Shown: piece after piece, positions 9,355-40,562 of the stretch
Layout of the letters: every line of letters begins with the position of its first letter
Position numbering within the stretch: the stretch's first letter is position 1
The notes under the pieces: model-generated
Databases searched by the model: none
Seen by the model: the letters and a program-made list of their open reading frames with translations, nothing else
Told to the model about the DNA's origin: nothing
Translations under genes and position numbers: made by a program
From: Paraspadella gotoi
Taxonomy: Eukaryota > Animalia > Chaetognatha
DNA length: 64,000 bases
Assembly (NCBI GenBank): GCA_051294375.1
Contig: JBJCIZ010000408.1
Coordinates: forward strand, 28,559 to 92,558
Direction of reading: 5' to 3'

Positions 9355-10077
9355 TGGGATTGAGGTGCTCAAAGGCTGACCCGGAAACTCCCCAAAATGT
9401 CTGGTCAAGGATGAAAAGGGATATTTTACAGTATAACGCTATGACTGTCAACAAAATCACAAAAATTTTAAAATATATTTGGTGAGCTGAACCCTTCATA
9501 TTTGAGCAGCTTCTTCGACTCTCTCCCTCATTGCAGGGAGGTGATGCTGGAAGCAAATGATGGTCTGACAATGTATTAACTAACTGAGTCCTATAAAACT
9601 ATAAACTATAAACTATATCCTTTAAACTAACTATTAAACTTTTTTTGAGCAGATCTTTATAGTTAGTTAATGCAAAATTTAATCAATGTCATTCTAGTAG
9701 TTTGATCGAAACCGATTCTCGGTACAAAAAAAGGAAGATCATTTTCTAATATGAGGCCCTTTGTAATTTATTCTCTCCCAGAAAAACTGGTTTCCCTATT
9801 AATCAAGTGAGCTACTTCAATTGTTGAAATGGACCGCTCCCTTATTATATTATTATCTTATTAATAAAAAAAATCACTTAATGTACAAAACTTATCTGCT
9901 AACAAAAAAAAACAAATTTTTAACAACCAGACAGCCTCACTTTATGCTCAATTTGAGTTTTATTGTGGTCAGTTTATTTTAATGGTTTTAACATGTGGCA
10001 GGGACAATGTGAAACCAAATAAAGAAAGTCATTTTGCGATATGTAGTATAATTTGAGATTTTGTTTAAGTCTAATTA

Positions 10078-10530
10078 GGACTAAGCTCTGACGAAAAAAG
10101 CCAGAGGTTTTTTTAATATATTCTTTTACTGGCCAATGTAGAATGATGGTAATATTGCTATTGTTAAGTTTCCAAAAAATCCAACCATAAATATAGAAAA
10201 TATTAACCAAAATATTCAGAAAATCCACCCCTTCTTTGGAAGATTTTCGCCATAGAAAATTTGTCCTGAACCTGACTCCCGGTTGAAATAAAATGTAAAG
10301 AAAAATTTTGAGAGCCTTTCAGACATATGGCTATTGGATTCCTTAATTTTAAGTTTATTGTAAAATCACATATGTTAAATGCGTTTACATTGTATAGAAG
10401 TTGAGAAATCCCTTTGTTTTATATATAAAAATTGCGTTGAAAATATTTTTCAGAGTGGACCAGTTCATTTAAATCTGATAGTTTAATATCATAATGATGG
10501 TTATTTGACAAGAGAAAAAAAATGGCAAGT
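10078..10530 (-). mobile_element. Partial copy of the TA-target GGA...TCC element family
   Basis: Begins TA|GGACTAAGCTCTGACG; reverse complement of roughly 59050-59616. Confidence 0.75.
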
Positions 10531-12719
10531 GAATCAGTGAGAGGATAAGGCGGGCCGGTAATCGCACAAGGAGCGTTGAGAAAGAAGCTGCGAGACAGGC
10601 GTGCCCCTGCAGGCCGTTGCTAGGAACCCTGATCGAAGGTTAGAGGAAACCGAGCAACGAAATGGACAGATTAGTGCGCCGCAAGCAGAGATGTGGGAGG
10701 AGAAACGGGATGAAAGAACCCTGCAGGGTGTTAATAAAAGGATGGCTAATGGAAGGGGCTCTGAACAAGGCCCAAGCACCGGAGCGGTATATGTCCCGGC
10801 TATGAGAATCAATGATTATGCATCCTTACCAGACGGAGTTTAGTTCTGGCATGACGGAAGTCCTCGTGTGCAGAAAATGGACTGAAGTGCGAGTGGACCG
10901 GTCCAAGTAATGAAAGGCTCATACTTTTACGCCTCGAGTGCGATGGGCAGAGGGATCTGGGGTGTGAGTTTGAATGTACTATTACAATGCTCATGACTTC
11001 AGGGAATCGCGGTGGGTTCACAGGATGGCGGACTGTAATCTAAGAGGATAGTAGCTATTGAGGTAGTTAGGTGGAGTGCACGGCTGATGTCGATCATAAG
11101 GAGAGTATGTAATATGCACCGATTGTCACAATATTCTGTGGCCGACGGAGGAGATAAACCATCTCCCGGGGCCCAGCGCACCTTGGTAGTGCCAGAGATC
11201 AAAGCTTCGGTTTTTAAATCGAACGAGTAGCTATGGACATTAAGGTAATGGACAAAACATCGAGGCAGCTGGTTTTTGTAGCAATCTTGAAGCTAGGGAT
11301 AAGTGGATTATTTTAAAATCCAGATTTGTGGGTCACTGACAAATTATTGGAAGAATACACAGGAACAGGCTGAGGAAGTGTAAACGGCATAATATGGACA
11401 ACTGGTGTTGCCTATCCTTTGGCGCCAGTTTTGCCACATACGGGATTTGGCGTGCAATTCCGCCGGCTTCCAAAAGGGCAAAAATCGCCAATCTTTTCAA
11501 AAATTGGATGGGAATTCACAAAAGCCATACTGTCCTCTTTGCCATCCTCAAGAGTGATGGTTTGGGCAGAAGACAGATCCCGTCGAACCTAAACAACACT
11601 TTTGTATAACAATCCTATGGAGGTTGAGGCCCGAGTCAGGAGAGAATTGGGTGGTGAAGGAACATCTGATCTGTGGGGAGTTGACCCGGAAGGTTTCGGT
11701 TTTGCCATGAATGCCTTACTGCTTGTAAAATTCACAGGGTCAGGTCCATTTTCGAGGTCATTGGACAGGATGAGGACATGACAATGAATCGCCTCCAAGT
11801 TGTGTTGCGGCTTTCCGTTGGTAAAGTGGAACGTACTGTGTTACATGAGGATTTGCACTTGGGGCAATCGAAGGGTTACGCAGGTTTTGTTGCAATCGGA
11901 CAGTCTTAAAAGCGCAGTTGCACAAACCTCACTGACGTTAGAAAAAACTGTCTCGACAAAGGGCTTATATGATTTGCCGTGCTAGTACTTCGCTACTTTT
12001 CAAAGAATGGAGATAAGTACTATGATCGAAAATTTTAATAATTCAGCCTCCATACGTCCCGAATCTTTTTAGCGCCCGCACAGTTCTACAACGAACCCTT
12101 TGTCATCACTAGGACTGAGTGATGTCACTATACGGTCATACTGTACCACCAGCTGACAAGGGTGGACGGAACTCGGGCGGAACAATGGCCACGACAGAAT
12201 GGAATCGGCCGTGTGTCCACCTGGCGCATATGCAGGATCAAATTGACTGGAGGATTATTCCGGTCGAATCACTTACCGCGAAGAAGTTGAGGGAAGCGGA
12301 TCAAAATCAAGAGACCTTTCCGGCGAGAGAAAAGTCGCGTTCGTGCTAACGATATGATCTACTATAATGAACGAAATGAACGGCGATCTTGGTTTTAGAG
12401 TGATGGCTTGACTAGTCGAGTAAATAAATTAAATAGAAGGTTGGACCCAAAATAAGAAAAAATATGAAAGAGATAAAATTAAAGCCAATAAAAAAGACAG
12501 TAAGATCAGAAAACATAAACATAACGGCAAAACAGTAAACGCAAACAGAACCAGTAAGAGGCAATTGGGGGTAAAAATTCGCATTCGCCATATAACTAAA
12601 TAAAATAATAACTGGTGTCACATGCAAATAATAATAACGAGTAATTAACTTCGCTAGATAATAATAACAAGATCTTGAAACAAGAAGAGATAGAATATTT
12701 AAAGAAAGAATAAGATTAG

Positions 12720-15700
12720 GGGGATCGCCCGGCCGCTGCGTCTCAGTGGAGCGACGAGGAGGTCGTAGGAGGTGGTACGGCGCTGGGGGCGGCGTAGCGG
12801 TGGGCGGGCGGCGGGTGGGAGGTCCACGACGGACTTCGACGTTTCTGGCCCCCCGCCCCTCCTGAGGAGTCATCCTCAGGCGAAGTCCTATAGCCGCTCG
12901 GATTCGGCCGAGGGTTTCGGGCGAAGCCAACGCCGACTGAGGTGGTGGAGAAAGAAGTGGCGTCGTAGTGGGCGTTTCGATGAAAAGCTTTCGACGCCGG
13001 CAGAGCGGCGTAGAGTAGGACAGCGAGGAGGACGAAGGAGTAGCCGTAGAGGCCGCCGCCCTGGGTTCGCGATGAACCAAATCATTCTGAGAAAAAGGAA
13101 AGAACGTAAAAATCAGTTTTTAACGCTAAAGGTAAGTAGTAAACTAAAGATCTAGAAAAAGGTCCAACTCATTACCGGAAGGGACTTTCGGAGTGAGTCA
13201 GGCGGGAAAGAAAACGGCGGCATAGAGACGGCGGCAGTTGTGATGGGGAGAGCGGAAAGGGGCGTGACGCCCCGAACGATACCAGCGTACCAAACGGTGT
13301 CGAGAGAGACGGAAGCAGGCGAGCGAAGGTCGTAAGATTCGTCAAAAGCGTGCAAGGCGATTCCGACTAGCTCCGAATAAGAAGAAGGATAAAATAAAAA
13401 CGTTCGCGCAACAGTCGCTAAAAAAAAATATAATATACGATAGAGAGGACAAATAAAATCGTCGATAGTCTCCTTCGTCGTCGTCGTCACCGCCTAGTCG
13501 TCGTCGCCGCCTTCGTCGTCGTCGTCGTAGCGGTCGTCGTCGTCGTTGCGTCGAGGGTAGAGAGAAAGGTTCGACCAAGATGATATGAAGGTCGTAACCA
13601 GCTCCGCGCTGAAGGAAAAATTAAAAAGAAAAACAAAAAAAATAAAATCGACGGAAAAAAATGGCCATCATGATAAAGGATCATTAGGAAGATAAAGACG
13701 AATTGTACCTATGTTGTGATTACAACGACGGATTTCCGTCGTGGCTGTGGGGCCCGTGGGAGTCGGGTGGGGCCACGTTGAGGGAGATCCTCCGGGACTT
13801 ATCCCCTCCCATAAGAAAGGCATATCGGTGAGGAGCTGGGTTCATCTCCAGGGGCCGTAGGGATGGAGCCGTTAGGTGATAGAGAGGGTGGGGAAAAGAA
13901 AAAGGACATTGGTAGAAGGAGGCTCAGGAGGAGGTGCTGCCGGGAAGGGTGGCAAGAAGGCTCCCACCATTGGTCAGGCCAGGGGTCAACATGCTGACTT
14001 AGGGCGACTCCTCTGGATGAGCATCGTCGACCCAATGGATGGTCGGGTGTCGAGGGGAACGCCATAGAGGGGGAGAGGGACAGAGCTTTCAGGGAAGAGG
14101 CTATCCGAGGAGGAGGCAGTCTTCAGGAGACCGGAGGCCGTGGTGGATAATCTCCGCCACCGCCTCAGCACATTAGTGGCCTTCAGGTAAGAATGGCGGG
14201 CGGATTCGGCAGCAGGTTAAGGAAAGAAAGGCAGGGTCTATGGAGAATAAGGAAACCCAGGTTAGGAGCTTCAGGGCAGAGCTTACTGGTTTGAAAGGGC
14301 ACCCGGAAATGGAAGGGGAGATTGGCATTGGGTTTAAATGGTATAGAAGCGAACATTAATGTTAAGATTAGGTCTCGGGATCCGAGCCAAAGAATGGGTA
14401 GGCTCGGTAGGAGGAGTTATAAAGCATTGATATTTACGTTTGGGGGATCTCTGTGATCCCTTACCCCCAGGCCTTTTCTGGCCTTGAGAAGGGAGTGGAG
14501 GGGGGATTCCGGAAACCTAAAAACGGGATCTGGACCCTGAGAAACACTCCATGTCCAGGAAAAGGTTGAGAACGTGGTTAGGGAATGGATATTGGCCGGG
14601 TTAGAATGGTTAAAAGGGACTAGATCTGAATTCAGGTGAATGAGACCTTAGATCCCTTCAGAGGAAGGGAGGCCTCACTGTTCGTTTAGTAAACCAGAGG
14701 GTGAGAGAATAGGGAATGTCAGACCAGGCCCAAGATGGGTCTAGAAAGAAAGTGAGGGTTGATCGTCTCTGTCACCCCAAGAAAACCGACGGGGGCAAGT
14801 TTTGGGGGAAGTCGTACGCTGGAAAAACCGGCCCGGGACCAGCGAAGGAGGACCGACTCCGGAAGGGAGGAGAGATGGCCTTGGCACTGGATCGCGCGAC
14901 GGCGTCGATTGGTGGAAAACTAGGAAAAGGATAAGAAGATAGAATAAAAAATTAATGATTTGATAATTAATTAATTGATTGATTAACAATATGAAAAAGA
15001 CAGAATTTTGGAAAAACATTACACTGTAAAGTTTTTAGAAACGATAAGGATAACGAATAAAAATCAGAACTTACCCAGCTGGAGGATTTTCCCCATTGAA
15101 GAGCTCGTAGGGATCCATGATCTCAAAAGGTACAAACAGAAGGTCGGCAGGGCGTGGAAGTCCAGCGGGGAAGGGCATGTTGACGTCATGGTGATAGCCC
15201 ATAATCCAAGGGGAGCGGTGGAAAATCCACTGCTCCCATCGGATCTGGCGCTTCGCCGCCCTCCGTAGACAGGCGCGAGGATGGAGGAACGGATGACGAG
15301 TGCCCGCACCAGGAGTGTTGAGTGCGCCGGGGAAGGAGGCTCAAGTAGCTTCTTGAACCCCGATACACCCCTGAGGTTTTCCAGCGGTCCGGAAGGGGAT
15401 CCCTGTCGACACGCCAGCCAGTGTGGAAAGACGGGCAGCCGTGCGACGTCGGCAAGCGAAAGAAAAATAAAACAAAGAAGAAATCAAAACTAAATTAAAT
15501 TAAATCTAAGCAAAATATTTCAAATAAAGAAAGAAATAATCAAATCGGAATAACTCGACAAGGGGAAAACTCACCAGAGTTCCGTGTCGTTGTCGAGCGG
15601 GACACGTAGACGACTCGTGGTGGATCCCCACAATCTAGGGGGCATCTCTTCAATGACGAAGAGTGGATCAACCACACTGGCAATCGGCTCGTTCGCGGGC

Positions 15701-16438
15701 GGCAAGAGGCTACCGCCCATAGTGAGTTCGTCGTGAAAGGCGAAGTCCAGCGCAAGGACTTCCGCATGAAGCTGACGAGTGCCCGGCCAGAAGGGACCGG
15801 GCGCGGCCGGAATAAATAAGGAAAAGACGAAACAGGAACCAACGAGTTGGTTGGATCCTGGATTTCCACAGCGTTGATTAGGCCGTTGGTGAGGAGAGCA
15901 GGCGGCCGGTTTGGCAGAGCAGTCGAGAGGGAGCGTGGCTCCCTCTCATTGAGGACTCTGGATGATGAGGGCCGCCCACTAAACTAGTCCCGTTTGCAAT
16001 GGGTACTGAGAAAGCAGACGCAATAAAAGGAATAACAACATAGAAATAGCGGAAAAATTTAAAAGCTAAAATCCAAGAGCACGAAAAGCACCGACGGGTT
16101 TTAAATATAATAATTAATAATAAACGAGTTCTAAATTTCACAATTAATTGATATTATTGATATCTATATTATCCTTGGAATATTTAATCAACAAATATTA
16201 TGTGTGTTCAGTTTATAGTACAAGTTTTAACTATAAGTTACGTGTACTAGCCACAAAAATTTCAACGTAAAGTTGTCTAATGAAATTTCATGTGAATTAT
16301 CTATTCGGTATGCTTTACATTTCACATTGATATTGTAAAATGTTATAATGTAATTTGCATGTAATTGACAAAATTAACTTACATAGAAAAAGACCCAAGG
16401 AGGCCGAGGAGAAGAGCGTAGGCGTAAGCAGAACCCAT
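12720..16438 (-). CDS. Putative multi-exon type I membrane protein, antisense within the LTR element
   Basis: ATG at 16438; MGSAYAYALLLGLLGSF..PIANG is signal-peptide-like and needs one homopolymer correction. Donors: GTAAGT 16382, GTGAGT ~15573, GTAAGT ~15074, GTACAA 13708, GTAATG 13175. Pyrimidine-rich acceptors at 16006, 14920, 13609 and 13087. Last exon YGYSFVLLAVLLYAAL, then CRRRK after a 1-nt shift. Several frameshifts; 3' end approximate. Confidence 0.5.
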
Positions 16439-16759
16439 TTCGAGAAGAGCGAGAGAAAAGGGAGAAAAAATGGGAAATTTTAGTGAGGTGCGGATAGAGA
16501 GGAGGAAAGCCGTGAATAAAAGAAAGTGACCCTTACCGTTGTTAAATAGTATCACTTCTCCATTGAGATGTCCCTGGCGGCCCGCACGGGAGACCCGTCC
16601 AACAACATGAAGGAGTGAGGACATTGTTCATGAATGAGGTAAAGGGGGTAACAGGGATTACATAACAAAAACCCCCCATTTTTTCCCTTTGTGGGGTCGC
16701 CCTGGGGGTTTTTTTTTACACTTTTATCCAAAGTGCTGCGAGGCAAAGCTTTTGTTTTT

Positions 16760-16769
16760 GGGGGGGAGG
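16760..16769 (+). promoter_or_regulatory. Polypurine tract of the LTR retrotransposon
   Basis: TTTTT-GGGGGGGAGG immediately 5' of TGTAAC. Confidence 0.7.
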
Positions 16770-17261
16770 TGTAACGAATCAAACTAAGAAGAAAGAAAGA
16801 GAGAGAAAGAGGGTGCGCCGTCGCCGTTCACGCTCAATTGGCTCCATCAAGAGCTGCCGGGCCACCCGGCCCCCCCCCGATGCAGGAGGAAGGGAGAGAA
16901 AATGCCTCCTTTACAGCTAAACTCAGGTGACAGGAAAAGAATGGAAAAGAGGAACAAAACGGAAGAGAGGCGATTATATAAGCACCGGCGGAAAGAGAAG
17001 GATGGAACCAAGCCACCAGCTACCAGCAGAAAGTGGAAAGTAAAAATAGGACTTCTGTCCAAAACTCAACACAACATAAGAATAAAATGTTATGCTATTC
17101 CTGATATTTAAACTGATCAATTAACCTTTTGTAAACTTTCTGTTGGTCAAAGAAATAAACACCAAAATAACCTCCACACAAATTTTTCTTCTGAAACAAC
17201 TACCCAAAAATCAAGATCGAATCCTCTAAGCTAGCGAGTTGTTTGTAGCTTACATGCTACA
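16770..17261 (+). mobile_element. Long terminal repeat (3' LTR), 492 bp
   Basis: TGTAAC...GCTACA termini (imperfect inverted repeat), TATATAA at ~16975, AATAAA at 17081 and ~17154; TA-element sequence resumes right after 17261. Confidence 0.72.
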
Positions 17262-19011
17262 ATAAATATAGGGATTTTTTTCAACTTCAATACAATGTCA
17301 ACGCATTTAACATATGTTGTAATTTTACAATCAACTTTGAATTCAGGAATCCGATAGCCATATGTCTGAAAGGCCCTCAAAATTTTTCTTTACATTTTAT
17401 TTAGTTATTTCAATATTGATATGATCATGGTAAAGTGAATTAGTCATTTTGGTGAAATTTTTATTGAAAGTAAAAGTAAAAGAGAGCTAACAATCGAATT
17501 TAAAGAGTTTTCAACGGGAGTCAGATTCGGGAAATATCTTCTATAGGCGAAAATCTTCCAAAGAAGGGTGGATTTTCCAAAGATTTTGTTAATATTTTCT
17601 ATATTTATGGTTGGATTTTTTTTGAAACTTAATATTTAACAATATTGCCATCATTCTACCTTGGCTGGTATAAGAATATATTAAAAAAACCTCGGGCTTT
17701 TGTTTCGTCAGAGCTNNNNNNNNNNNNNNNNNNNNNNNNNAATGCCCATGTTTCGCAGGAGATGCAACAGACATTGGCAAATCTAGTGTTTTTATATCTA
17801 TTTAGCGAGTCTACATTGTTCTCAGAAATTGAGGAAGACTTTTTCAATGGAGATTTTTTGCTAAAATCTGACTACCAACCAATGTAAACGCTCAGCGTAA
17901 AAATTCAGGTAAAAAATAGATGTAAAAACACTCGTTCCGATCTGTGTTGCATCTGAAGCTTGCATTTTTTTCTGACAGGAAATAACCATCATCTTTTGAC
18001 ATCAAACCAATCCTGATTCAAATGGACTGGTCCGCTCGGAAAAATATTTTAACATCCGATTTTTATATATAAACCTTACGGATTTTTCAACTTCAATCCA
18101 ATGTCAACGCATTTAACATATGTTGTAATTTTAGAGCTTAATCCTACTATTGTTAAATTTTAAAAAAATCCGACCATAAAAATAAAAAATATTAACCAAA
18201 ATCTTTGAAAAATCCACCTCTTTAACCAGGCGCAGGTCCAGATTCGACGGAAAAATTCTTCTATGTGCAAAAATCTTTCAAATAAGAGGTTGGCATTTCA
18301 AAAGATTTTGGTTAATATTTTTATATTTATGAATCGCGATTTTAAAATTTAACACATTAGTAGTTAAGCTCTGACGAACAAAGCCCGAGGTTTTTTTAAG
18401 TATGATTCTATATACTAGCCAAGGCTAGAATGATGGCAATATTTCCTTAATATTAAGTTTCTAAAAAAATCCACCATAAATATAAAAATATTAACCAAAA
18501 TCTTTGAAAAATCCACCTCTTATTTGAAAGATTTTTGCCATAGAAGATTTTTCCTGAATCTGACTTCCTGGTTAAAAACGCTTAGAATTCGATTGTTTAG
18601 CTTCTCTTTTACTTTTACTTTAAATAAAAATTTTACCAAAATGGACTAATTCACTTTACCATGGTTGTATCATATTAAAATAACTAAATAAAATGTAGAG
18701 TCAGTTCTGGAAAAATCTTCTATGGCGGAAAATCTTCCAAAGAAAGGTGTGATTTTCCAAAGATTTTGATTAATATTTTTTATTATATGATCGGATTTTT
18801 TTAAAACTAACAATAGCAATATTGCTATCATTCTACATTGACCAGTAAAAGAATATATTAAAAAAACCTCTGACTTTTTTCGTCAGAGCTTAGTCCTAAT
18901 CTATTTTTTACCAGAATTTTTCTCAGGTGCGTTTATATTGTTTGGTAGTCAGATATGAACAAAACTCTCCATTGAAAAAATCTTCTCAATCTCTAAGAAC
19001 GACGTCAGCTC
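17262..19011. mobile_element. Cluster of nested/inverted copies of the TA-target element
   Basis: Repeated blocks match 58898-59616 on both strands. Right terminus CGTCAGAGCTTAGTCC|TA ends at 18896; left-terminus-like sequence at ~17805 (+) and ~19011 (-); palindrome at ~18133-18372. Confidence 0.75.
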
Positions 19012-20140: not shown

Positions 20141-23100
20141 GGGAATCGTTTGAGGAAAAATGCAATTAGGTCAATAAAAACAAAATGAAATGAATTGAAT
20201 AAAATGATTTAAATGAAATGAGTTTAGATGACGATGAATTTAAATGAAATTAATTGAAAAAATCAATTTGAAATGAAATTAATGGAATAAATGAAATTAA
20301 TTAAGATGAGATGAATCTAATTTTAAGATTTATTTATTTAAATAAATGAAAGAATTTAGATAAATAATTGTATCGAGTAAATAAATTTAAAAAAATTATG
20401 AACTGAATTCATTAAATTTGAAGCACCTAAAAATCTTCGGCGGCAATCCGCAAGATTGTCGTTTGACACGCGCGGGCTGCACGAGGCTAGTGCTCAAGCA
20501 GCTGCGCGCAACACAGGCATGGCTACCGGGGTTCTCTTGTTAGATGCTTGAATCGATCAGTTGAATGATCTGCGTTGATGCGAAGGGTTTGGACGACGGA
20601 AGCGTCGAAGTATTTCCGTCCCGTGGTATTCCTAGACATGTCATTAATTAATTAGCATCAATTTTTATTCACTCATAATTTTTATTAATTCCAATTTTCT
20701 CTAACATTTACAAGTTTTTGGGCCTACTATTCATTAGTTAGAGCCGTAATTTTTACTTTAGAACGTCGAAAACCGCAGCCCTCTAGCTTTTCTGAAAACC
20801 GGAGATATAGAGGTTACCAATAAATTCTCTTGCAAAAAGATTTGCCTGGCGCCAAACTGATTGTCGGCGAGGGTCATTCTTTTTTGGTTTTACCAATAGA
20901 TCCTCTCCATAATATCTGTGCGTCCCATGCATCCTTTTTAAAATTCCTACAGATCTTTCCATAGAAAAAGCTCACAACAAGATTGAAATGACCAAATCCT
21001 TGTTGAACGCAAAAAAAAAAGAAAAAAGAAATTTTTTTTCGCAAACAGCGATTTGCTAAGCGGACCTGCGGAAATCGCACTAATTATCTAATAACAAGTC
21101 GCGCTATTTTTATCTTTTCATTTGTTTTTTTATCTGAATTTTTTTTCATTCAAAAACTTTTGATTTGATTTCGAAAACTTTTTCACAGTACGAGGATATT
21201 TTTTTTCTTTGAATTTCAAGAGGTTTTATTTTTTGTTCTACTGCACTAACAAGAAAGCCATAATGGAAAGCGATCGGCCTACGCATGGATACTCAGACAA
21301 CAACAAAGGAAAGTGCTTCGAAAAATCAATTGTACCATCTTAATCCTACTTTTCTTCAAGAAAAAGCATTTTAAATCTTGATAAAAAAAAATGATAGAGC
21401 GATTGGCTCGAAAGCAAGCGTATTGGAGCAAAATAATACAAGAACATGCGAATGAGGAAAGTGAGTGAATCAGACCACCAGTCAAGGTATGATAACAAAC
21501 AAACAGATAAATAAATAAGACCATGTAAAAAATCGGCCTTTGTATTGAATTCATCGAAGCCCTCTGCCGTATGACTGATCAGCGAATCAATATCTCTCTC
21601 TCGCTCTATCTCTCTCTTCTGAGATTTCCGGATTGACAAAAACGACGATAATTTGAAGATAAATTAATGTTTACAGTTTTGGTTATAGTTAAGGTTCGGG
21701 CCGGCGCGGCTTTAGATGTAGGGGATAGATATAGTGTCCGAACAGGATGGGATCGACCGAAACGACGACGATAATTTTGACGATGGCGGAAGCTAAGCGA
21801 CAATGAGAGCGACAATTAAAGCAGCAAAAGAGACGAGTTTGTGCGTCTGTTTTGAGTCCGCTGCCTTCAGAGCCGCAGCAAGGGGACTTCGATTGAAAAA
21901 AAATCGGCTCTAGCGATTGTACTTTACCCTTGAATTTTGGTTATTTTTTTCTGTTCATTTTTTTCCATCATTTTTTTTCTCTTACTAGGAGCTTTTTATT
22001 CATTTTTTATTAACAGCAAGCTGAAAAAAGTATGCATATTTTGAAAAAAGTATGCAAGTTTTAAAAAATTATGCAAGTAAAGAATTATGCAAGTTGAAAA
22101 ATATCCAGTTTAAAGAAATTATGCAAGTTGAAAAAATTATATTAAGTTGAAAAAATTATGCAAGTTGAAAAAATTATAATAATGTGAAGAAAAATTATGC
22201 AAGTTGAAAAAATTATGCAAGTTTGAAAAAATTATGCAAGTGAAAAAATTATGCAAGTTTGAAAAAATTATGCAAGTTGAAAAAATTATGCAAGTTGAAA
22301 ATTATGCAAGTTGAAAAAAATTATGCAAGTGTTGAAAAAATTATTGGCAAGTTGAAAAAATTATGCAAGTTTGAAAAAATTATGCAAGTTGAAAAAATTA
22401 TGCAAGTTGAAACAATTAGCAAGTTGAAAAATTATCCAAGGTTGCAAAAAATTAGCACACGTTGAAAAAATTATGCAAGTGAAAAATTATGCCAAGTTGC
22501 AAAAATTATGCAAGTTGAAAAAAATTATGCAAGTTTGAAAAAATCTTATACAAGGGTTGAAAAAATTATATTAAGGCTAAAAAAATATTACAAGTTTAAA
22601 AAATGGATGCAGTTAAAAAAATATGAAGTAAAAAAATGATACAATAAAAAAATGAATGCAAATTAAAAAAATGATGCAATGTTAAAAAAATGATGAAGTT
22701 TGAAAAAAAGATACAGCTAAAAAAATTGATGCAAGTTAAAAAAAATGATGCAAGTTAAAAAAATATGCAAGTTAAAAAAGATACAAGCTAAAAAAATAAT
22801 GCAAAGTAAAAAGATTGACGCAAGGGTTAGAAAAAATGATGCAAGTTAAGAAAAATGAAAAAATAAAAAATAATGAAGTTAAAAATAATACAAATTAAAA
22901 AAGATATATAATAAAAATATTTGCATGCCAAAATTAAAAAATATTTATTTAATTGCCTACAGTAACTGTTTTTTAATTTAAGCCCTGAAAGCGATTTTAC
23001 ATGTGGTTGCGCAGCCACTGGTTAATTATTTGATTCACATCTGCATTTTGCGCAATGAAAATTGATAATGGCGTCTGACGACAATCGATCAAACAGCGTT

Positions 23101-26743: not shown

Positions 26744-27473
26744 NNNNNNNNNNNNNNNNNNNNNNNNNAAACGCTTAGAATTCGATTGTTAGCTTCTCTT
26801 TTACTTTTTTCTTTAAATAAAAATTTTACCAAAATGGACTAATTCACTTTACCATGGTTGTATCATATTAAAATAACTAAATAAAATGTAGAGTCAGATT
26901 CTGGAAAAATCTTCTATGGCGAAAATCTTCCAAAGAAAGGGTGAATTTTCCAAAGATTTTGATTAATATTTTTTATATTTATGATCGGATTTTTTTAAAA
27001 CTTAACAATAGCAATATTGCTATCATTCTACATTGACCAGTAAAAGAATATATTAAAAAAACCTCTGACTTTTTTCGTCAGAGCTTAGTCCTAATCTATT
27101 TTTTACCAGAATTTTTCTCAGGTGCGTTTATATTGTTTGGTAGTCAGATATGAACAAAACTCTCCATTGAAAAAATCTTTCTCAATCTCTAAGAACGACG
27201 TCAGCTCCTTGTCTAATGCTCATTTTACTGAAATAAGAATAAGTAATAAGAAATAAGAATTGGTAAATTTTGTTAAATAAGAAATAAGAAATGGTAAATT
27301 TTGGCCCAGCTTAATACTGAAATATTTGTCGCATTTAGATTTTTTTTTTTACAATTCTAATAGAACAGTTTTAACGATATACTATATCCTTTCATAGTTG
27401 TTTGAATAGTTTGTAATGATTGAAAGAATTATAAAAAGCTCACAGGTCATTTTTTACTTGAAATTATTTACAG

Positions 27474-27757: not shown

Positions 27758-28344
27758 AGAAAAAACTTTTGTTTTAACTTGATTTAAGATTAGCAGCACA
27801 TTCATCTAGGTAAAACAAATTTTTTGATTCATACTTGCTGCGAGATTGAAGAATTAATTATCCATTCGTTTCCTCACAATAATAACAATTACAAAATTAA
27901 TACAGAATCAGAAACTTTTTTTTGGTATATAATAGATACAATTAAATTTATAGCTTAATTTCAGCTAATTTAAACGCAAATTGGAGATGCCCAGTCGGCC
28001 AAAGATTTTTCTATTGGGCCAAAGAATAGTCTGCACCTAGGGTAGGGGCTGTCCATCATAGGGGGAACAGTTTTTTCATCATTGAAACATGAAATATACC
28101 TACAGATCTGGTAGAAAAAAACTTTGAACCCCCTGCTATCGTGGTTGTCTGTCTTTCTATTAATTAAAACTTGGGTTCATTTGAAAGCCATCTTTAATTT
28201 GAGCTCATGACAAAGTTTTGAGGTTAAATATCCGTTTAATAAAATGATCTTAACTTTCATAAAACTTCAAAATAAAAAATCTTAAAAGTATAATGATCTC
28301 GGATATTATGTAATGTAATGATGTGTGATGATAACAGGGATTAG

Positions 28345-30174
28345 AACAGGATTGAGTGATCCATATCCAGGGGGAGATCCAAATGGTCTCACACCCGAGA
28401 TCCTCCTTCCATCTTTGCGACAGAAAACTAAGGTGGCTTTTTTATATCTTCATGCGTCTGACGGAATACACCGATCAAATGATCAACATCTTAAAGAAAT
28501 CTCAAGCGACGATTGGTTCAAGGAGATGTCTCTGGAATCCGTCGTGGAACTTATGCCGACCGCTCTGGAGTCGGTCTCTTCCACCATCAGCTCCGTCGAA
28601 TCCACCACCATTTTCCGCGATGATGAACATGGGCGACTCCTCCAAGCCTTTGAAGGAATTCGTCCTCGAAGACGCCTTTCCGAGATGGAACAGGCTCACG
28701 GCCGAGCAGGTCTGCGTCTTTGACCACGAGCTCCGAGAATGAATAAAGGTCTCTTTCGAGCGGGAGGCATTGACGTGGACCTTTTGAAGGAACCCTTGAA
28801 GTTGTCGAAAAAAGATCGTTTGTTGAAGATCGCGGACAAACCCTTCGCCAAAGGCGCCAACAGACTCGCCTATTACGGCCTAGATGTCACGCCTTCGACG
28901 GAAACGAACCCGTCGAAGACTCCAGCAAAAGTTTGTGTCCTAAAAGAGTTTCTCTCACCTCGGTGGGAGGATCAACTCTAAAAGAAAACTATGTCGACCA
29001 GATCGAAGTGCAGGCGATCGGGATGCACCTCGCAATGCAATTTAACAAGGTTAGTTTTTCAAACTTTTTTTAAGTAAAAACAAACAAAAAAAAAACTTAA
29101 CTTGTTTTTAGTTTTTATTCTTTTTTTGAAAATACAAATTTTTTTTTTCCATTTAAGTATTAAATATATTTATTATTTTATTAGGACGTTAACAATGATC
29201 ACAAAAACACATCAAAAAAACATTAACGTTATAAGAGATCCCCTTTTCGTGTTCAATTATTCCATTTCCTACTGGTGGTTATGACTTATTAGGTGGAAAC
29301 CCACAGGCTACAAAGACGTCAAGTTTCTAAAGGAATCTCTTGTGAGTTTTCACAAACGAGAAAAAGCCATCTTATTTCACAAAGAAGCTATGATCGAGGG
29401 GGAATACACTAAGTATAACAACACTGGGGCTACGTAAATGAGAAGGAGTATCACTCTCTTCATCCACGCGTTTAGTCACTGGAGTTATGACGTTACTGGT
29501 GGATTCATGCAGGTCAAAAATGTTATTCAATTCTAAAAGTAATAGAAAGAGTTTTGAATTTTATTTCGACAAAGATTTTATTTCATATTAAAACGTACAT
29601 GTTAAACGCTGATGAAGACTCGCACTAACAGTCGAAACATGTACGTTTCCACTATGAAATAAAATCGTTGGCGAAATAAAGTTTCAAACTCTTTCTATTA
29701 ATTACCAACACAACGAAAGAAAGTTATTGACACATTTCTAAAAGTATTAATTCTAACTCAATAGTTTTAAATACTTTTTTTAAGACGGCAATGATCATAT
29801 TATTATATAATAATTATACAAATAGTTTCCAGTTCTTAATTAAATTTCTAAAGGTGGTCGATCTTTCAAGGGGTCAAATCTGGGTGACGTGTTCCGTCTC
29901 ACGGATCCCGTCATTCACTGCACTGACGTCACGCGGTTCACGAAAACTAATCTTGGACGTCAGGATGGATCGCTTCTTTCAAGACTCTATGCCTGCAATG
30001 ATGTTTGCCGACAGGTCAGTTATCTGTCGTTATCGGCAAATGAATGTTGAATAGTTTTTTTACATTGATGAAAATACTTTATTTAAGAGTTAAAATGTCT
30101 TTCATCAGATGAAACTGAAGAGACACAGGAAGCAAAGACGCTGCCAAAACTGCGCCGGAAGAATGCGTCACTGA
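28345..30174 (+). CDS. Alpha-kinase (eEF2K/MHCK family) paralogue 1, 5'-truncated within the vWA domain
   Basis: Exons ~28345-29049, 29293-29512, 29854-30014 and 30109-~30174 with GT-AG introns. Motifs PFAKGANRLAYYG, VLKEF, YTKYNN, AFSHWSY, VVDLQGV, LTDPVIH, NLG and H.CNDVC after indel correction. Confidence 0.88.
29542..29735 (+). mobile_element. Penelope-like pLTR fragment with inverted partial copy
   Basis: 11-bp TSD TTCTAAAAGTA at 29531-29541 and 29736-29746; arms 29540-29603 and 29636-29700 are inverted copies; hammerhead core followed by two AATAAA. Confidence 0.7.
29604..29650 (+). ncRNA. Minimal hammerhead ribozyme core (stem I apparently disrupted)
   Basis: CTGATGA-A-GACT-CGCACTAAC-AGTC-GAAAC-ATGTAC-GTT: conserved CUGAUGA and GAAA boxes, stem II GACU/AGUC, short stem III. 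Confidence 0.6.
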
Positions 30175-30986: not shown

Positions 30987-33952
30987 ATGGATCATCGGTC
31001 CAGCTGCACTAATGAAGATGGTGATGTCGACGAGGATAAGGACCAAGTTATCAAGCAACTACAAGCACAGGTGGAGGAGTTGCAAAACTAAGATGAAAAT
31101 TAAATTGAAGAACAAAGCACACACATTGACAAAAGGTAAAAAAATCCTTTCTTACGTTCACTTATGAATTTGAAAAATGTTACTTTTAAAAAAATTCAAA
31201 CATTTTGAAATGTGAAGTCTGATCGCTAGTGTTCCTGAACAATTATCATTTACGCATGCTTAACCTTGGAGGCGACTTTTCCCTTATCCAACATTATTAG
31301 TATCATTTTCAAAAATCGTCTTTTTAAAATTTTAAAATTTTAACTTTTAAAATTTTAAGTTAAGACTTTTAAAATTTAACTAACTTGTTTTCCACTCAAA
31401 TGATAAATTTCGTTTCCTCCTCTTGTTAGTACATATTTTGACATTTTTAACCATTACTTTCTCACTCAGAGCAAAGAACGACGAACCACCACCTCCTTAC
31501 AGTGAACTCGGAGCAGTTGGTGGATCGGATTTTTCTTATAGCAGGAACTCCCAACAAAGTTTGCCTATCCGAATTACAATCGCTACCCGCCCCCTCGATT
31601 TCCGCCTTATCATCCAACGGCTTTGTTTCCAATGTATCCGCCGTATTTAGAGCATCTACTGCGATATCATGATATGACCCACGATGCCGATCGCCACAGC
31701 AGAACAGAGAGAGAAGAAACTGAAAGTTCGATTATATCGAGTAAAGATGCAAAAGTATCCCGTCAAAATGTGAATCATAATGAGGTCGACATATCCGAGG
31801 AAGAAGACTCCATCTCTGACAGCGCAAATCGTCAAGAGGAGAAGGTACGAGCGGCGAGAGAAAAGCTCGAAAAGATGAAGAAGAAGCAGAAAGAAGTGGA
31901 ACTGGAAAGATTGAGGGAGCAGATCGATTGCTGGAGGAAGAGAGCCTCCAATCATCATCGCTGACTTCCGTCTTTGATGTTAGATCTCGATCGAGAAAGA
32001 CTCAAGGCGGAAAATTCAAAAACGACAGGCGGAAATTTCTCTAGTTTTGGAGGAAAATGAAAAAGGCGACTATCGTTGACATTTGCTTTTTGCTCGATTG
32101 TACCAAAGAGCATGAGTCCGTACATTGTCGAAGTCAAATCGAAGATCCAGTGGCTCGTCGACGAAATTGTCAAGAGACACGATGTACACACTATCAAACT
32201 GGCTTTCGTGGGTTATCGCGATTTGTGCGACGGAGACAATAACCTTTTCGGTTCTTTATTTACAAAGTCGGTTCAAGCATTTCTGGAATTTCCTTGGCCA
32301 AAATACATGCAGGTGGCGGATGCAGTCACACCGCAGATGTGATGGGAGGATTGGCTCAAGTCTCTCGCCTAAAGTGGACCGCTCCCGCGAGCCGGATTTT
32401 TAATTCATATTGAGACGCGCCTGGTCATGGAACTATGTTTTCACGTTCGACAGAAATTAAAAGATCCATTTCCTCGAGGGGATCCTAAGGGTCCGCAAGC
32501 CAGAGTCTCCTCCTTCCGATTTTACAAAATCAGACTCTGATCAGCTTTTACATTTTCATGCGTTTGAGAAGACTTAACAGATCGTATGATCAACAGGTTC
32601 AAAGAAATTACCGGTTGATGACTGGCTGAAGCAGATTGAATCCACTAGAAACTATATTGGATTTGATGCCGAATGCGTTGCAATCAATCTCGGCTACCAT
32701 CAACTCGATCGAACGCAAGACGGTATCTTGGATTACGACTCAACTCTGACAAATCCGTCCTTTCTGAGAAGCAGTTTTTGCTCGATGAGAACCTTCCTCA
32801 TTGGAACGATTTGGAAGCCGAAGAAGTTTACATCTTTGAGCACAAATTGCCCCGGATGGAACCGAAACTGTTCGCGCGGGGAGGCATCGATGTTGATCTT
32901 TGAGGAAACCGTTGGAGTTGACGAAAAAGGATCGACTGGTTAAAATTACGCGGAATCCTTTCGCCAAGGGCGGAACGAGACTCGCGTATTTTGGTCGTGA
33001 CGTCACGCCATTTCCTGGGAAGCCTTCAGAGACTTCCAGCGATGTTTGCGTTCTCAAAGAGTTTCTTCTCGCCGGTGGAGGAATCAATTTCTAAAGAAAA
33101 TTATGTGGAACAGATCGAAGTACAAGCGATTGGCATGCATCTGGCATTACAGTTCAACAAGGTGGGAATTCTGATGCTTTTAGCTTTAAAATAAAATATA
33201 TATTTTTAAATTAAGAAAAAATTATTGTGGAAAACATATGAAACCAGATCCTAAACATATCCTTATTTCTAAATAAATTAAGTAATTTCAATACGAAAAA
33301 TTAACATTTCAGGCGAAAACCCAAGGGAACTAAAGAAATAAAATTTTTGAAAGAGTCCTTGGTCAGCTTTCACAAACGCGGAAAGCCTTCTTACTACACA
33401 AAAGAACCAAAAATTGATGGAGAATACACAAATTCAGCAACAATTGGGGCTACGTGAATGAAAAGGAATATTATTCACTGCTACAAACCTTTAGTCACTG
33501 GAGTTACGATATCACTTGGCGGATTCTGCAAGTAACTTGTAACACGCCGTAAAAGTAAAATTAGGCACAAGGTTCACTTTGTAGTATCAAAGTTTATAAA
33601 GCGAGTCGAAGGATAGAAAGATCGAGAGAGCGAGAACGTATTAATTTGTTCTTTTTTTCGCCAGGTCGTCGATCTTCAAGGCGTCAATCCGGTGAGGTTT
33701 TCGTCTAACTGATCCAGTGATACACTGTCTTGACGTCACGCGGTTCACAAAAAACTAACCTCGGTGTGGTCGGGATGGAACGTTTCTTCAGGACTCACAC
33801 TTGCAACGACATCTGCCGTCAGGTTTCACATAGATATACTATTTATTTCTGTGATCTAGATACAGCTCATGTTAATTTTTTTATTATTTTTTTTCTTAAT
33901 TTAGATGAGATTGCTACCTCGCTTGGCTCCGAAACAAAGCATTGCACAATAA
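30987..33952 (+). CDS. Coiled-coil + vWA + alpha-kinase protein (VwkA-like architecture), paralogue 2
   Basis: Exons 30987-31135, 31470-33161, 33313-33531, 33665-33822 and 33905-33952. vWA motifs: DICFLLDCTKSMSPYI, LAFVGYRD, DAPGHG. Kinase motifs: PFAKGGTRLAYFG, VLKEF, NNWGYV, TFSHWSY, VVDLQGV, TDPVIH, NLG, HTCNDIC. Intron positions match paralogue 1; many single-base frameshifts are probably sequencing errors. Confidence 0.9.
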
Positions 33953-34510: not shown

Positions 34511-37500
34511 TTATTTTTTCTTTCCGATTCCATCGAACTCTGCCAACGACGCCGCCAGACCGGCGTCCCTCAAGACGGCGTCGAGTCGCTCCACTTCAGC
34601 TGCCGAAAAATTCCGCGCGGTGGCGCCGCAGACGTCGCTGAGAGAAGGGGCTCTTCCTTTGAGAATCGAGATATCGCGATGATGTCGTCGTTCGTCGTCT
34701 TCGTCGTCGTCCTCTTTTTGATCCGCAAAAAGGAAGGATCGTCTCATCCCAAATATTCGGATCCTGCATGAGATTCCTCGTAGAGAATCGGCAGTACCTT
34801 CTCTCTGCGGACGGGATCTTCGAGGATTCTCCGCGCCACCAAACACGGGCGTCAGCCAGTAGCCGACGAAGTGAGAGAGGAGAGAGGTAGAGCCAACTTC
34901 GATCATCCGCTTTTCGTCGTCTTTGTCGTCGTCGTCGTCGTCCTGTTTTTTCGTCGAGGGTGAAGAGCCGCTTGTCATTGGAGTAATCAAATTTTCCATC
35001 CAACTCCAGCGACTGGGTCCACTCGTCTCGATTGGAGTTTATCTCTTTACTTTCCTTCTTATTTCTCTCGTTCGGTCTCAATATTTTTCTCCTTTTTCTG
35101 AGCTTCGCCCTCAAGTTCCTCACTCCTCTCATCTCCCTCCCTTCCCTCTTCTCCTCCTCTTTCTCTAAATCAATTTCTTTTTCTCTATCTCCTCCCTCTC
35201 TTCCTCCCTCCCTTTTTCTCGTCTTCGTCTCCATCGACTTCGACATTTTCTCCTCTTCCTCCCTCTCCTACCTTCTCCTCTTCCTCCCCCTCCTTTTCCT
35301 CTTCCTCCCTCCCTTTTTCCTCTTCCTCCCCTTTCTCTTCTTCCTCCATTTCCCCACGACTTCTTCAAAGCCTCGAGGAATACATTCGGCCACGTGGCTC
35401 CGTTAGCGCCGACCATGAAATCGGGCCATCGCCGACGCAGCACCGGCAGCCGGCCGAGCAAGCCCTCCGCGTCGGCGGCGAAACCGGTGACGAGTCTTAG
35501 CCAGGACCTCAGCGCCGGCAAGGGTCGCCGGTGCATGAAGATGAAGCGAAACGTCGAATGGCATTAAAGGGGCGACGTCGATGAGGTCCTGTGGACGAAA
35601 GATGGAGTTGTGGTTATGGTTGTGGTGGTGGTGACATAGAAAATTCGTCCTTTTTATAGAAATGACACAATATATCGAAACTTTTTACAAATTCATAGAT
35701 AAAAGAGCCAGATACTTTGATTATTATTGATTAAAAGATTTCAGGCTTTTTATTCTTGTACGAAGTCTAGCCTACCATAACTTTTCGAAAGTCAGTAAGA
35801 TTCGTAGCTTATTTATTGAATTAATTGTCATTTTATAATGATTTTTCAAATTGATTAATGTACATATGTCTCGACAGTTTATAATTCCAATAATTCTGTT
35901 TCATACGTCCAGTGTCAGCTGTATAAATTGCTGATTACAGTTTGTACATCGGCCTTATCAGTAGTATTTAGTGACATATGCTTGGACATTTGTAAAATTT
36001 CAAATTAAATTAAACAATTTATCATATTGTCTAATGTCTATGCAACGACATGCACCTTAAGCATCCAAGGAACGAAGGCAGGGATTTTAACGACAATGAC
36101 GTTGATCCCCGGAGTCGCGTAGAGAGGCCGGCAAGACGGCGAAGAGGATGTGACGCAACAGGGGAACATTCTCCACCGCCGACGCCGCGTTGGCAGTGTC
36201 GGCGACGGCATTCGCCTTAATCAGCGCCCAGTTGGCGAGCGGCTGCGGTTCGTTGATGACGACGGCGTCGGGGACTCCTCAAAGAGACGCGAAAGAAAGG
36301 ATCCACCGCATCGCGGGTGGGATGCCACGATTATGGCCTCGCTTCTCGCGGCGATGGGCGTGGGTAAGGTCGAACGCTGACGCCGCTTCCTTGTCCTCTA
36401 TCGCCTCTTTCGCCTCTGCCTCCGCTTTCGCCTCCGCTTCCAACTCCTTCGCTTCTGCCTGCTTTCGCCTCCGCCCTCATCCTTCTCATTTTCTCCTCCA
36501 CAATTTTTCAAATTCCTTCGAGGAGACGAACGATGAATCCTGAGCGAATTGGGGAACTCCTAGAAAAGGCGAACCCCGCCACAGAGGAAGCGTACACGTT
36601 GACGTCTGAAGATGGAGTGGGGGTTGGCGAAAAATGGGCATCAGTTGATATGGTAAGGTTATTTTAAGAATATATGTAATAATACATATTACATACATAA
36701 TACACAACATTTTTAATTCATCATTCATACTGAAGAGACAGTAATTATTGATATGTGTTAAATGACAGAACCGTTCAATATAAGCAGTCCCTGAGCTTCG
36801 GATCAGGCTGTAACACCATGTTACAGGCGGGTTAAGCGCCCCGTCCCTCTTAACTGCCAGACGACCACCGGGCTAGAACCACGGACCTTTGGGTTGGGAA
36901 GGCGAATGGCTTGCCTCCGGCACCAATGGCCGCTGATGAACGGTTGGTGGATTTTAGTCCACCATTAATACATAATATATAATATTTAAATAACATACAT
37001 ACATAAATAAAACGAGCATACATAAAATTTACGTAATATAAGTAAAGAAAGACAATTCTCCAAACATGTAATATACGTCATATAATTTTGGGATCAAATA
37101 ACGTATACGTCGTATACGTACTTTATGATTTGTTTGGGAGTTTCTGAGTAATATACTTATATCGTTACATTCGATATGGCTCAGTGGGTGGGTCACAAAA
37201 TTGATGTCAGTTTTAAAATGGGTTCGAGCAAAAGTAATTGGCTGAACCGGCGAAAAATAAAGTGATGAGATTATCTTAGGAATTTTAGCTCTAGAAATTT
37301 CGGCGACCCGAGAGTTAGTTTGGTTTGGTTGATACTTTTATTCATTTTATAAAACTGAATGTAAAATAAAAAAATATATTAAATAATGTTCTGGAAATCT
37401 GACTCACAATCATAAATATATATAAATACATCCATTAGGAAAACTACTACTGACCCTTTTTGTCCGCACAAATTCCAATCCAGCCGGTGACACGTGATGC

Positions 37501-37789: not shown

Positions 37790-38049
37790 TTTCGCGGAAA
37801 ATCGCCGGGATTTTCGTTTCCAGTTTCGCCGGTTAAAAAGAAAAAAACAAACTTGGAAAAAACAATTGGAGCGAAACGGGAGAAAGTAGTTCGTTTGATG
37901 CGCGGACAGGAGAATCAACCGTTCTTGACGAATTATCGTTTATTAGCGAATGAATTATTGGTCGTGGCTGTAGTAAAAGTTAATTTTAACTTTCTAATAT
38001 AAGCCCTCTTGGCCTTTTTGTCCAGAGCGCCACATTTCTTCTTAAAGAT

Positions 38050-38220
38050 ACGGTTAAAAGTTAGGGTTAGGGATTCGTTTAAGGATAAGGGTTAGGGATT
38101 TGGTTAGCGATTTGGTTAGGGATTAGGGTAAGGGATATAGTTTTAAGATTAGGGTTAGGTTAAAAAGATTAGCGGTAGGGTTAGGGTAAAGGAGTATGTT
38201 AGAGTAAGAGATTAGGATAG
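38050..38220 (+). repeat. Degenerate TTAGGG-like hexamer array
   Basis: Multiple GTTAGG/TTAGGG units interspersed with variants. Confidence 0.75.
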
Positions 38221-38760: not shown

Positions 38761-40562
38761 NNNNNNNNNNNNNNNNNNNNNNNNNAGGAGAATCGTTTAT
38801 AAAATGCAATTAGTCAATAAAAGCAAAATGAAATGAAAAGTTGAATTAAAAGTGTTTAAATAGAAATGGAGTTTAATGACATGAATTAAATGAAATTAAT
38901 TGAAATAAAATCATTGAATGAAATTAATTAGAATAAATGAATTAATTAAATGAATCGAATCTAAGATATTAAAAAATTTTATTATTTAAGAAAATATAGA
39001 AAAATTTAGGATAAATATAAATTGTATCGAGTAAATAAATTTAAAATTATGAACTGAATTCATATCAAATTGAACACCTAAAGAATATCTTCGGCGAATA
39101 CAGATTGTCGTTGAACATCGGCCGCGGCTGCACGTAGAGCGGCGCAAAGTCGCGAACCGGGGTCTCCTTGTTAGATGTTGGAATCGATCGTTGCATGAAT
39201 CTCGGTTGATGGAACGGGGTTTGGACGCACCGACGGAAGACGTCGAAGATATTCCGTCCCGTGGTATATTCCTAGAATTATTAAATTAAATTAGCATCAT
39301 TTTTCATCTCATATTTATTGTTATTAATTCATTTTCCACTAACAAGGTTTTGGGCCTATATTCATTAGTTAGAGCTAATTTTCTACTTTAGAACGTCGAA
39401 AACCGCAGCCCTCTATCTTTTCTGAAACGGAGATATAGAGGTTACCAATAAATTTCTTTGAAAAATTCCTGGCGCCAAACTGATTGTCGGAGGTCATTCA
39501 TTTTTTGGTTACAATATCCTCTCCTGAATATCTTGGTCCCATGCATCCCTTTTTTTAAAATTCTACATCTTCATAGAAAAAAGTACAAAAGATTGAAATG
39601 ACCAAATCTTGTGAACGCAAAAAAATATAAAAAAAAATTTTTTCGCCAAAAGCGATGCTAAGGACCTGGGAAATCGCCTAAATTATCTAATGAACAAGTC
39701 GCGCTATTTTTATCTTTCTTTGTTTTTTTTTATCTGAATTTTTTTCTTTCAAAAACTTTTTATTTGATTTTCGAAAACTTTTTCACAGTAAGGATATTTT
39801 TTTTCTTTGAATTTCAAGAAGGTTTTATTTTTTTTCTACTGCACTAAACAGAAAGCATAATGAAAGCGATCGCTACGCCATGGTACTCAGAAACAACAAA
39901 GAAAGTTGCGTAAAATCAATTGTACTCTTAATCCTACTTTTCGTCAAGAAAGTTTTAATTTTGATAAAATGAATTGGCGAAAGCAAGCGTTTGGAGAATA
40001 ATAACAAAACATGCAATGAGGAAAGTGAATCAACCACCAGTCAAGGTAGAGTAACAAACAAACAGATAATAAATAAGACCATGTAAAAATCGCCTTTGTA
40101 ATTGTAATCATCGAAGCCCTCTTGCCGTATGATGATCAGCGAATCAATATCTCTCTCTCGCTCTATCTCTCTCTCTCTGAGTGGCTATGATCACAGGATT
40201 GGATTCAAAAACGACGATAATTTGAACGATAAATTAATTGTTCGTTTTGGTTATAGTTAAGGTTAGTATTAGGGATACGATATTGAGAGCGCTCGACCCA
40301 GGATCGGGATCGACGGAAAGACGACGATATTTGAACGATGGCGGAAGCTAATGCGACAATGAGAGCGACAATTAAAGCAGCAAAGAGACGAGTTTGTGCG
40401 TCTGTTTGAGTCCGCTGCTTCAGGAGCGCAGCAAGGGGGCTTCGATGAAAAAAAATTCGCTTTAGCGATTTACTTTACCTTGAATTTTGGTATTTTTTTT
40501 TCTGTCATTTTTTTCCATCATTTTTTTCTCTTACTAGGAGCTTTTTATTCATTTTTTATTAA

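Follow-up and report, generated by a model that had tools for sequence, protein, structure and literature searches.

A probable Ty3/gypsy-type retrotransposon fragment with a candidate antisense, intron-rich gene for a predicted membrane protein

We analysed a 64,000-nt stretch of the Paraspadella gotoi genome (contig JBJCIZ010000408.1, positions 28,559 to 92,558; hereafter the window). It is eukaryotic in character and rich in AT, contains both satellites and dispersed repeats, and shows an elevated GC content at about 10.5-17.0 kb; its repeat types and the style of its introns suggest an invertebrate host. The GC-elevated part holds a degraded pol remnant and a long terminal repeat (LTR) on the plus strand and, between the two, a minus-strand gene of about seven GC-rich exons and six AT-rich blocks (12.7-16.4 kb; Table 1). 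An initial annotation of positions 12720-17261 had proposed an LTR retrotransposon with an antisense, spliced gene for a type I membrane protein beside its 3′ LTR; the pol remnant at 10.5-12.35 kb lies outside this interval and had been missed. The core of the proposal, a spliced coding gene in antisense orientation near the 3′ LTR, is supported by splice ends, codon bias, an integrase segment and the depths of contigs from X1, a single DNA run that contained 0.06 of the sampled words and in which depth does not equal copy number.

The AT-rich blocks were defined by strand-neutral GC segmentation, and splice sites were scored in fixed windows at the block edges. On the minus strand, four of the six blocks showed a donor (background 0.066, binomial p = 0.0003) and three an acceptor (background 0.068, p = 0.005), while splice ends were present at 0 of 12 block edges on the plus strand. 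The donor of intron 2 (15574) and the acceptor of intron 1 (16006) are situated just outside the fixed windows. Both ends were found for introns 1, 3, 4 and 6; instead of the at least five GT-AG introns that had been claimed, we thus count four complete introns, one with a donor only and one doubtful block. A minus-strand ATG had been reported about 330 bp inside the LTR edge, and we located it at 16438, 332 nt from the boundary of polypurine tract (PPT) and LTR, from where the frame reads MGSAYAYALLLGLLGSFS up to a GTAAGT donor. The exons sum to ~2790 nt or ~930 codons. The spacer at 12400-12720 is likely the 3′ untranslated region of the antisense gene, and no minus-strand AATAAA was found in it.

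Table 1 Features of the element and its flanks in the window.
Feature	Position	Strand	Remarks
High-copy host repeat	10074-10522	-	Complete at the element-adjoining end; marks the 5′ truncation of the copy
Degraded pol remnant	10524-12350	+	Integrase core detectable at ~11489-11604
AT-rich spacer, pol to antisense stop	12400-12720		GC 0.23-0.42, T-rich on the minus strand
Last exon	12743-13086	-	Transmembrane-like helix 13051-12995, Ser/Pro-rich tail of ~83 residues, stop where the GC-rich block ends
Intron 6	13087-13175	-	GTAATG...TTTTCTCAG
Exon 6	13176-13375	-	Pro/Ser-rich; codon bias p = 0.046
Doubtful intron 5	13376-13459	-	AT-rich block; edge windows lack both donor and acceptor
Exon 5	13460-13608	-	GAC/ACG trinucleotide run, acidic or Thr-rich depending on frame; TRF array 13475-13546
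Intron 4	13609-13723	-	Donor 13723 or 13709; acceptor TTCCTTCAG
Exon 4	13724-14919	-	~1.2 kb, Pro/Ser-rich; 8-16 stops in each frame
Intron 3	14920-15074	-	GTAAGT...TTTTCCTAG; codon-supported frames on either side joined in phase
Exon 3	15075-15458	-	88 codons without a stop in the late frame (codon bias p = 0.088)
Intron 2	15459-15574	-	Donor GTGAGT; pyrimidine tract without AG in the window
Exon 2	15575-16005	-	REPR in one frame; codon bias p = 0.023 for the late frame, p = 0.70 for the REPR frame
Intron 1	16006-16382	-	GTAAGT...TTTCTCAG; ends bridged by X1 contigs (depths 101.7 and 120.9)
Exon 1	16383-16438	-	ATG and hydrophobic leader; not in phase with exon 2 as read from the window
Leader and likely promoter region	16439-16759	-	Pyrimidine-rich on the minus strand; nearest upstream ATG 16563; promoter putative
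PPT GGGGGGGAGG	16760-16769	+	Immediately 5′ of the TG of the LTR
3′ LTR	16770-17261	+	492 nt, TG...CA; TATATA 16975; AATAAA 17081 and 17154
High-copy repeat copy	17264-17715	+	Cut by the LTR end at ~100 nt of its length

The GC-rich blocks also carry a coding signal. Pooled over five single frames in segments selected by eye, the codon index reached 320 compared to 273.5 ± 8.1 for a best-of-three-frames null (p = 0.0002), and no codon periodicity was detected in introns 1 and 3, the LTR, the leader or the 3′ spacer. Among the X1 substitutions listed (40 of 124 rows), all five at 14058-14121 in exon 4 share one codon phase, namely the third position of an open minus-strand frame, and three of them are synonymous, which may be taken as a weak hint of selection. 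Since the window is full of single-base indels, the antisense protein is known in pieces only: the reading frame is lost at the junction of exons 1 and 2, inside exons 2, 3 and 4, and again on the way from the last acceptor to the helix. Relative to the window, several X1 contigs show 3 substitutions and 21 gaps per ~280 nt, and a host alpha-kinase gene nearby is likewise frame-broken; the breaks are therefore likely to reflect assembly errors as much as decay.

The late hydrophobic helix of the initial annotation is indeed present. It reads LYGYSFVLLAVLLYAALPA in a single unbroken frame (KD19 1.82), its segment has the strongest codon bias of all segments (p = 0.0015; tail p = 0.048), and the frame continues for 83 residues to a stop where the GC-rich block ends as well. 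When the last exon was shuffled, 29 of 2000 sequences reached this hydrophobicity. CRRRK, said to follow the helix, turned out to belong to another frame, and the codon bias stays with the helix frame beyond that point; because of the frame difference, we rejected CRRRK as a stop-transfer motif. The hydrophobic leader could be confirmed as such in exon 1, but the putative signal peptide is weak, and the REPR motif is not distinctive, given that RxxR occurs in three of the six segments checked. The better-supported frames are rich in Pro, Ser and Thr and contain only one Cys and two N-glycosylation sequons per 413 residues. A C-terminal membrane anchor is moderately supported, and a product of ~900 residues with a signal peptide, one anchor and type I topology appears somewhat favoured.

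Searches for relatives of the antisense pieces remained negative in a word-indexed homologue search, Pfam, PHROGs and PDB sequences, in metagenome scans (at protein level and with a 20-nt pattern), in viral contigs and in tblastn against the 29 pol loci described below. The queries to large databases were limited to the exon 2 and exon 3 pieces; for the 89-residue exon 3 piece, HMMER found no homologue among 1.84 billion representatives. An Atlas search with two antisense pieces gave a best value of 0.82, which we regard as a lead only. A single-sequence fold (pLDDT 59.8, pTM 0.29) was discarded, as it was confident only over intron read-through. In the pieces searched, we found no F- or gB-type ectodomain with conserved cysteines; with its low cysteine content and without a family, structure or homologue match, the predicted protein was rejected as a member of the F- or gB-type Env proteins, and the label ‘env-like’ is unsupported in the sense of a known fusogen. 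The env genes of errantiviruses and retroviruses are sense-oriented, whereas the splice ends and codon bias found here are on the minus strand.

On the plus strand, a frameshift-tolerant scan with a pol profile built from 15 references detected the integrase core at 20.8 bits, the top of 256 bins, with 0 of 120 shuffles (60 + 60 per profile) above 7.6. Profile scans of the pol remnant scored 17-21 bits with ends at 11571-11604 compared to shuffle maxima of 5.8-12.6, and an rve-only profile ranked the integrase segment first of 512 bins (0 of 100 shuffles). Maxima of 35-40 bits in the rest of the window arose from N runs, and once these had been randomised the next-best bin scored 14.8. By eye, we recognised pieces at 11.2-11.8 kb that hop among the plus-strand frames and that we take to be integrase motifs. 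Single-frame searches of the remnant against Pfam, PDB, homologues and viral sequences yielded no match. The references came from 29 loci collected by their integrase motif, with Pfam reverse transcriptase (RT), ribonuclease H (RNase H) and integrase domains in all 10 open reading frames (ORFs) submitted of 25 extracted. The gypsy-type pol ORFs of these loci (L007-L029), several of which carry a SCAN domain and have their integrase ahead of RT, come from contigs assigned to bacterial and archaeal genome bins and likely represent eukaryotic contamination. Within the recognisable pol, integrase comes last, ahead of the 3′ region, and RT was not detected behind it; this order, as far as it can be read, would fit gypsy and not copia. 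The element likely represents the 3′ half of an LTR retrotransposon of the Ty3/gypsy type.

The PPT and the TG...CA LTR of the initial annotation were both confirmed; the tract is purine-rich and G-rich, and the LTR begins with TGTA and closes with TACA at 17261. No target-site duplication surrounds the LTR alone. Because its left flank is the PPT and its flanks are not duplicated, a solo LTR beside a host gene was rejected. One X1 contig (depth 174.6) covers 16941-17249 with 13 letters remaining and thereby ends at the terminal CA, and loose ends at this point continue differently from the window’s own flank; this behaviour is like that of a repeat boundary. At the other end, the copy is cut at 10522 by the complete end of a high-copy host repeat, which shows 88-91% identity to 59059-59618 and other copies and an X1 depth of ~38,000, while the repeat behind the LTR can be aligned to the reference copy only from position ~103 of the latter onwards. 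Copies of this ~560-nt dispersed repeat of very high copy number occur at 10074-10522, 17264-17715, 17980-18900, 26891-27095 and 59059-59618, and the two that flank the element are in opposite orientation.

Does the antisense gene belong to the element? X1 contigs over the integrase had depths of 119.7 and 111.6, and those over gene and leader 111.1, 90, 93.6, 120.9, 101.7 and 91.4 (variants 29-77), compared to 6-40 for contigs matching by chance. Depths over the LTR were 120.2 and 174.6, about 1.5-2 times the internal depth, which is only a hint of paired LTRs. Two contigs bridge the ends of intron 1, which is therefore part of the repeated unit; X1 cover is absent, and hence uninformative, at 12196-12669 and 16644-16833. 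On these grounds, gene, integrase and LTR probably form one repeated unit, with the antisense gene borne by the element. A further X1 contig (depth 55.3) skips or replaces 126 nt over intron 6 (13104-13231) and differs near the helix, which suggests a second subfamily.

With respect to published elements, the architecture is less unprecedented than the initial annotation implied. It had ascribed antisense ORFs mainly to plant Gypsy elements; such plant cases are published, but the Boty element of Botrytis is another case, and we presume that its antisense gene brtn has many introns. Antisense ORFs (aORFs) between pol and the 3′ LTR were described for maize Grande (gene23), rice RIRE2, Silene Retand, PvRetro13 and Botrytis Boty (PMC7264820), and brtn is an extra antisense gene in the same slot of Boty-like Ty3/gypsy elements in Botrytis cinerea (PMC7264820, PMC8365987). 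Like them, the present gene has its coding sequence antisense to the element and placed after pol and before the 3′ LTR. It differs from brtn in its host, which appears not to be a fungus, and in its predicted membrane topology, which is unmentioned for brtn in the available text of these two papers, and from the plant aORFs, which are nuclear or bear TRP28 domains (57 of 104 Retand ORFs), in its approximately six introns and its predicted membrane anchor (PMC7264820, PMC11963269). The word ‘intron’ is absent from the main texts on the plant aORFs (PMC7264820, PMC11963269). The env genes of errantiviruses (F- and HSV/gB-type) and of the Oikopleura Tor elements occupy the same slot and encode a signal peptide and a C-terminal anchor (PMC13524379, PMC4402516). 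Their products are structured, cysteine-bridged fusogens, whereas the present gene is antisense, intron-rich, cysteine-poor and without homology to them; the term ‘antisense’ does not occur in the available text of the errantivirus survey (PMC13524379). Retroviral antisense genes, namely HBZ/APH of deltaretroviruses and ASP of HIV-1 (PMC10186651), belong to vertebrate retroviruses, are short and overlap sense genes, in contrast to the long, non-overlapping, multi-intron gene of a gypsy-type element proposed here. In the literature searched, which covered few subscription papers and had supplements and repeat databases outside its scope, we found no LTR retrotransposon with an antisense gene that has many introns and encodes a membrane protein.

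But how could a retrotransposon keep a gene full of introns? Introns that are present as reverse complements in the plus-strand genomic RNA are copied intact by reverse transcription. The initial annotation had invoked such retention, and this is consistent with established retrotransposon biology: the introns persist because the packaged plus-strand RNA carries their reverse complements, which the spliceosome does not read. A separate minus-strand mRNA would then be spliced. Seven upstream ATGs lie between the TATA box of the LTR and the minus-strand ATG, which leaves the LTR unsupported as an antisense promoter. They favour transcription that starts within the leader, close to the inner side of the PPT, comparable to Grande gene23, which has its own upstream promoter (PMC7264820), and to some Tor env genes, which are driven by an internal promoter (PMC4402516). 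The product would likely be a mucin-like surface protein on the host cell or on budding particles and serve as an attachment or tethering factor. That it helps particles to stay on or pass between cell membranes, without being a classical fusogen, is doubtful though conceivable. It would be rather improbable, and is mentioned as speculation, that in a gypsy lineage of an invertebrate-like genome an envelope or attachment gene of a third type has arisen, without relation to F and gB, antisense, with ~6 introns and its own promoter, whose expression could differ from that of gag-pol in cell type or timing and which serves cell-to-cell spread.

Our preferred reading, which we hold tentatively at close to even chances, is that the locus represents the 3′ half of a gypsy-type element from a family with its own antisense multi-intron gene for a type I membrane protein, which would have a Pro/Ser/Thr-rich stalk and act in attachment or tethering. 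Several observations weigh against it. The integrase evidence comes from a single segment, and the references were chosen using the very motif under test; tblastn and pairwise frameshift alignment against gypsy pol references were not significant, nor were the H2C2, p58_C, RT and RNase H profiles in the pol remnant, one Viterbi setting was outscored by 1 of 40 shuffles, and earlier settings were marginal. Neither gag, RT or RNase H nor a second (5′) LTR was found in the 64-kb window. X1 is possibly the source sample itself, and among the pieces listed (8 of 1587 and 8 of 12) none bridges PPT/LTR and gene or gene and pol. Regarding the protein, 967 of 5000 shuffled versions of the leader bases were as hydrophobic as the leader, shuffling all exons produced an equally hydrophobic helix at some position in 254 of 500 cases, reading on across intron 6 at its phase-0 junction leads to a frame that lacks the helix, and frame breaks separate the helix from the upstream exons. 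Furthermore, 14 AATAAA motifs occur on the plus strand between pol and LTR (12400-16769), mostly within the antisense introns; they could truncate the genomic RNA, and the element would have to escape premature polyadenylation.

The points concerning leader and helix lend themselves to an explanation in which the antisense spliced gene is borne by the element and its product is soluble or nuclear, like Grande GENE23 or HTLV HBZ, with both hydrophobic stretches being accidents of frame. The leader is not beyond shuffles, equal helices are common in shuffled exons, the in-phase reading after intron 6 lacks the helix, and those published antisense products that were localised are nuclear (PMC7264820). 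We nevertheless consider a soluble or nuclear product unlikely, as the helix frame has the top codon bias and maintains it into the tail, and as hydrophobic stretches occur in the first and the last exon, just where a type I protein requires them. Host-like intron structure with AT-rich introns could also mean that a host membrane-protein gene was captured with its introns by recombination at the DNA level and travels as a passenger without a role for the element, and captured genes in LTR elements have been described (PMC7264820). Such a passenger is distinctly unlikely in view of the missing homologue of the exon 3 piece and of the diverged X1 variants (up to ~10% substitutions), whose five listed changes in one codon phase of exon 4 weakly hint at selection. 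Very unlikely, in turn, is a member of a host multigene family amid unrelated integrase and LTR debris, in which the common depth would result from segmental duplication: the copy lacks its 5′ half, no listed contig bridges the parts and the window harbours another tandem host duplicate (the alpha-kinase pair), but the PPT abuts an LTR that is not solo, integrase and LTR agree in orientation and spacing, and the elevated GC content at 10.5-17.0 kb stands out from AT-rich flanks. A true fusion protein, namely an envelope with cleavage at REPR that would represent a novel structural class, is hardly credible: slot, size of ~900 residues, leader, RxxR and late helix would suit it and short or unclassified transmembrane ORF3s were proposed as fusogens in rotifer elements (PMC5408684), but errantivirus Env proteins are highly structured with conserved cysteines (PMC13524379), and the present frames are Cys-poor with two sequons and a high Pro/Ser/Thr content, the pieces searched having no match in Pfam, PDB, PHROGs or the Atlas.

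Compared to the known antisense extra genes of LTR retrotransposons, which have no established function and are nuclear where localised, what is new in our preferred reading is the membrane topology that it predicts. If true, a membrane-anchored, intron-rich gene would (i) extend the antisense class to surface proteins and (ii) offer a route for cell-to-cell spread or for modulation of the host cell. It would also show that an element is able to retain a fully spliceosomal gene through reverse transcription, and surveys based on sense-strand, intronless env ORFs would miss such genes by design. The weight of this hinges on the predicted topology and the putative family membership.

No tRNA or Rfam matches were obtained. 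Elsewhere in the window, two tandem, diverged multi-exon alpha-kinase copies, both frame-broken, are located on the plus strand at 28300-30030 and 31000-33910; Pfam Alpha_kinase matched 29282-29522 (E = 4.9e-12), and the second copy contains a vWA-like stretch at ~32060-32340, recognised by eye and without a Pfam match. A GC-rich patch at ~36500-37000 on the minus strand gave a weak RT/RNase H profile score (18.7 bits versus 8.0 shuffled) and is perhaps another retroelement remnant. Arrays of an 18-nt A-rich satellite occupy 22078-22900, 40545-41370 and 43660-44620, and a degenerate, interstitial TTAGGG-like run extends from 38040 to 38220.

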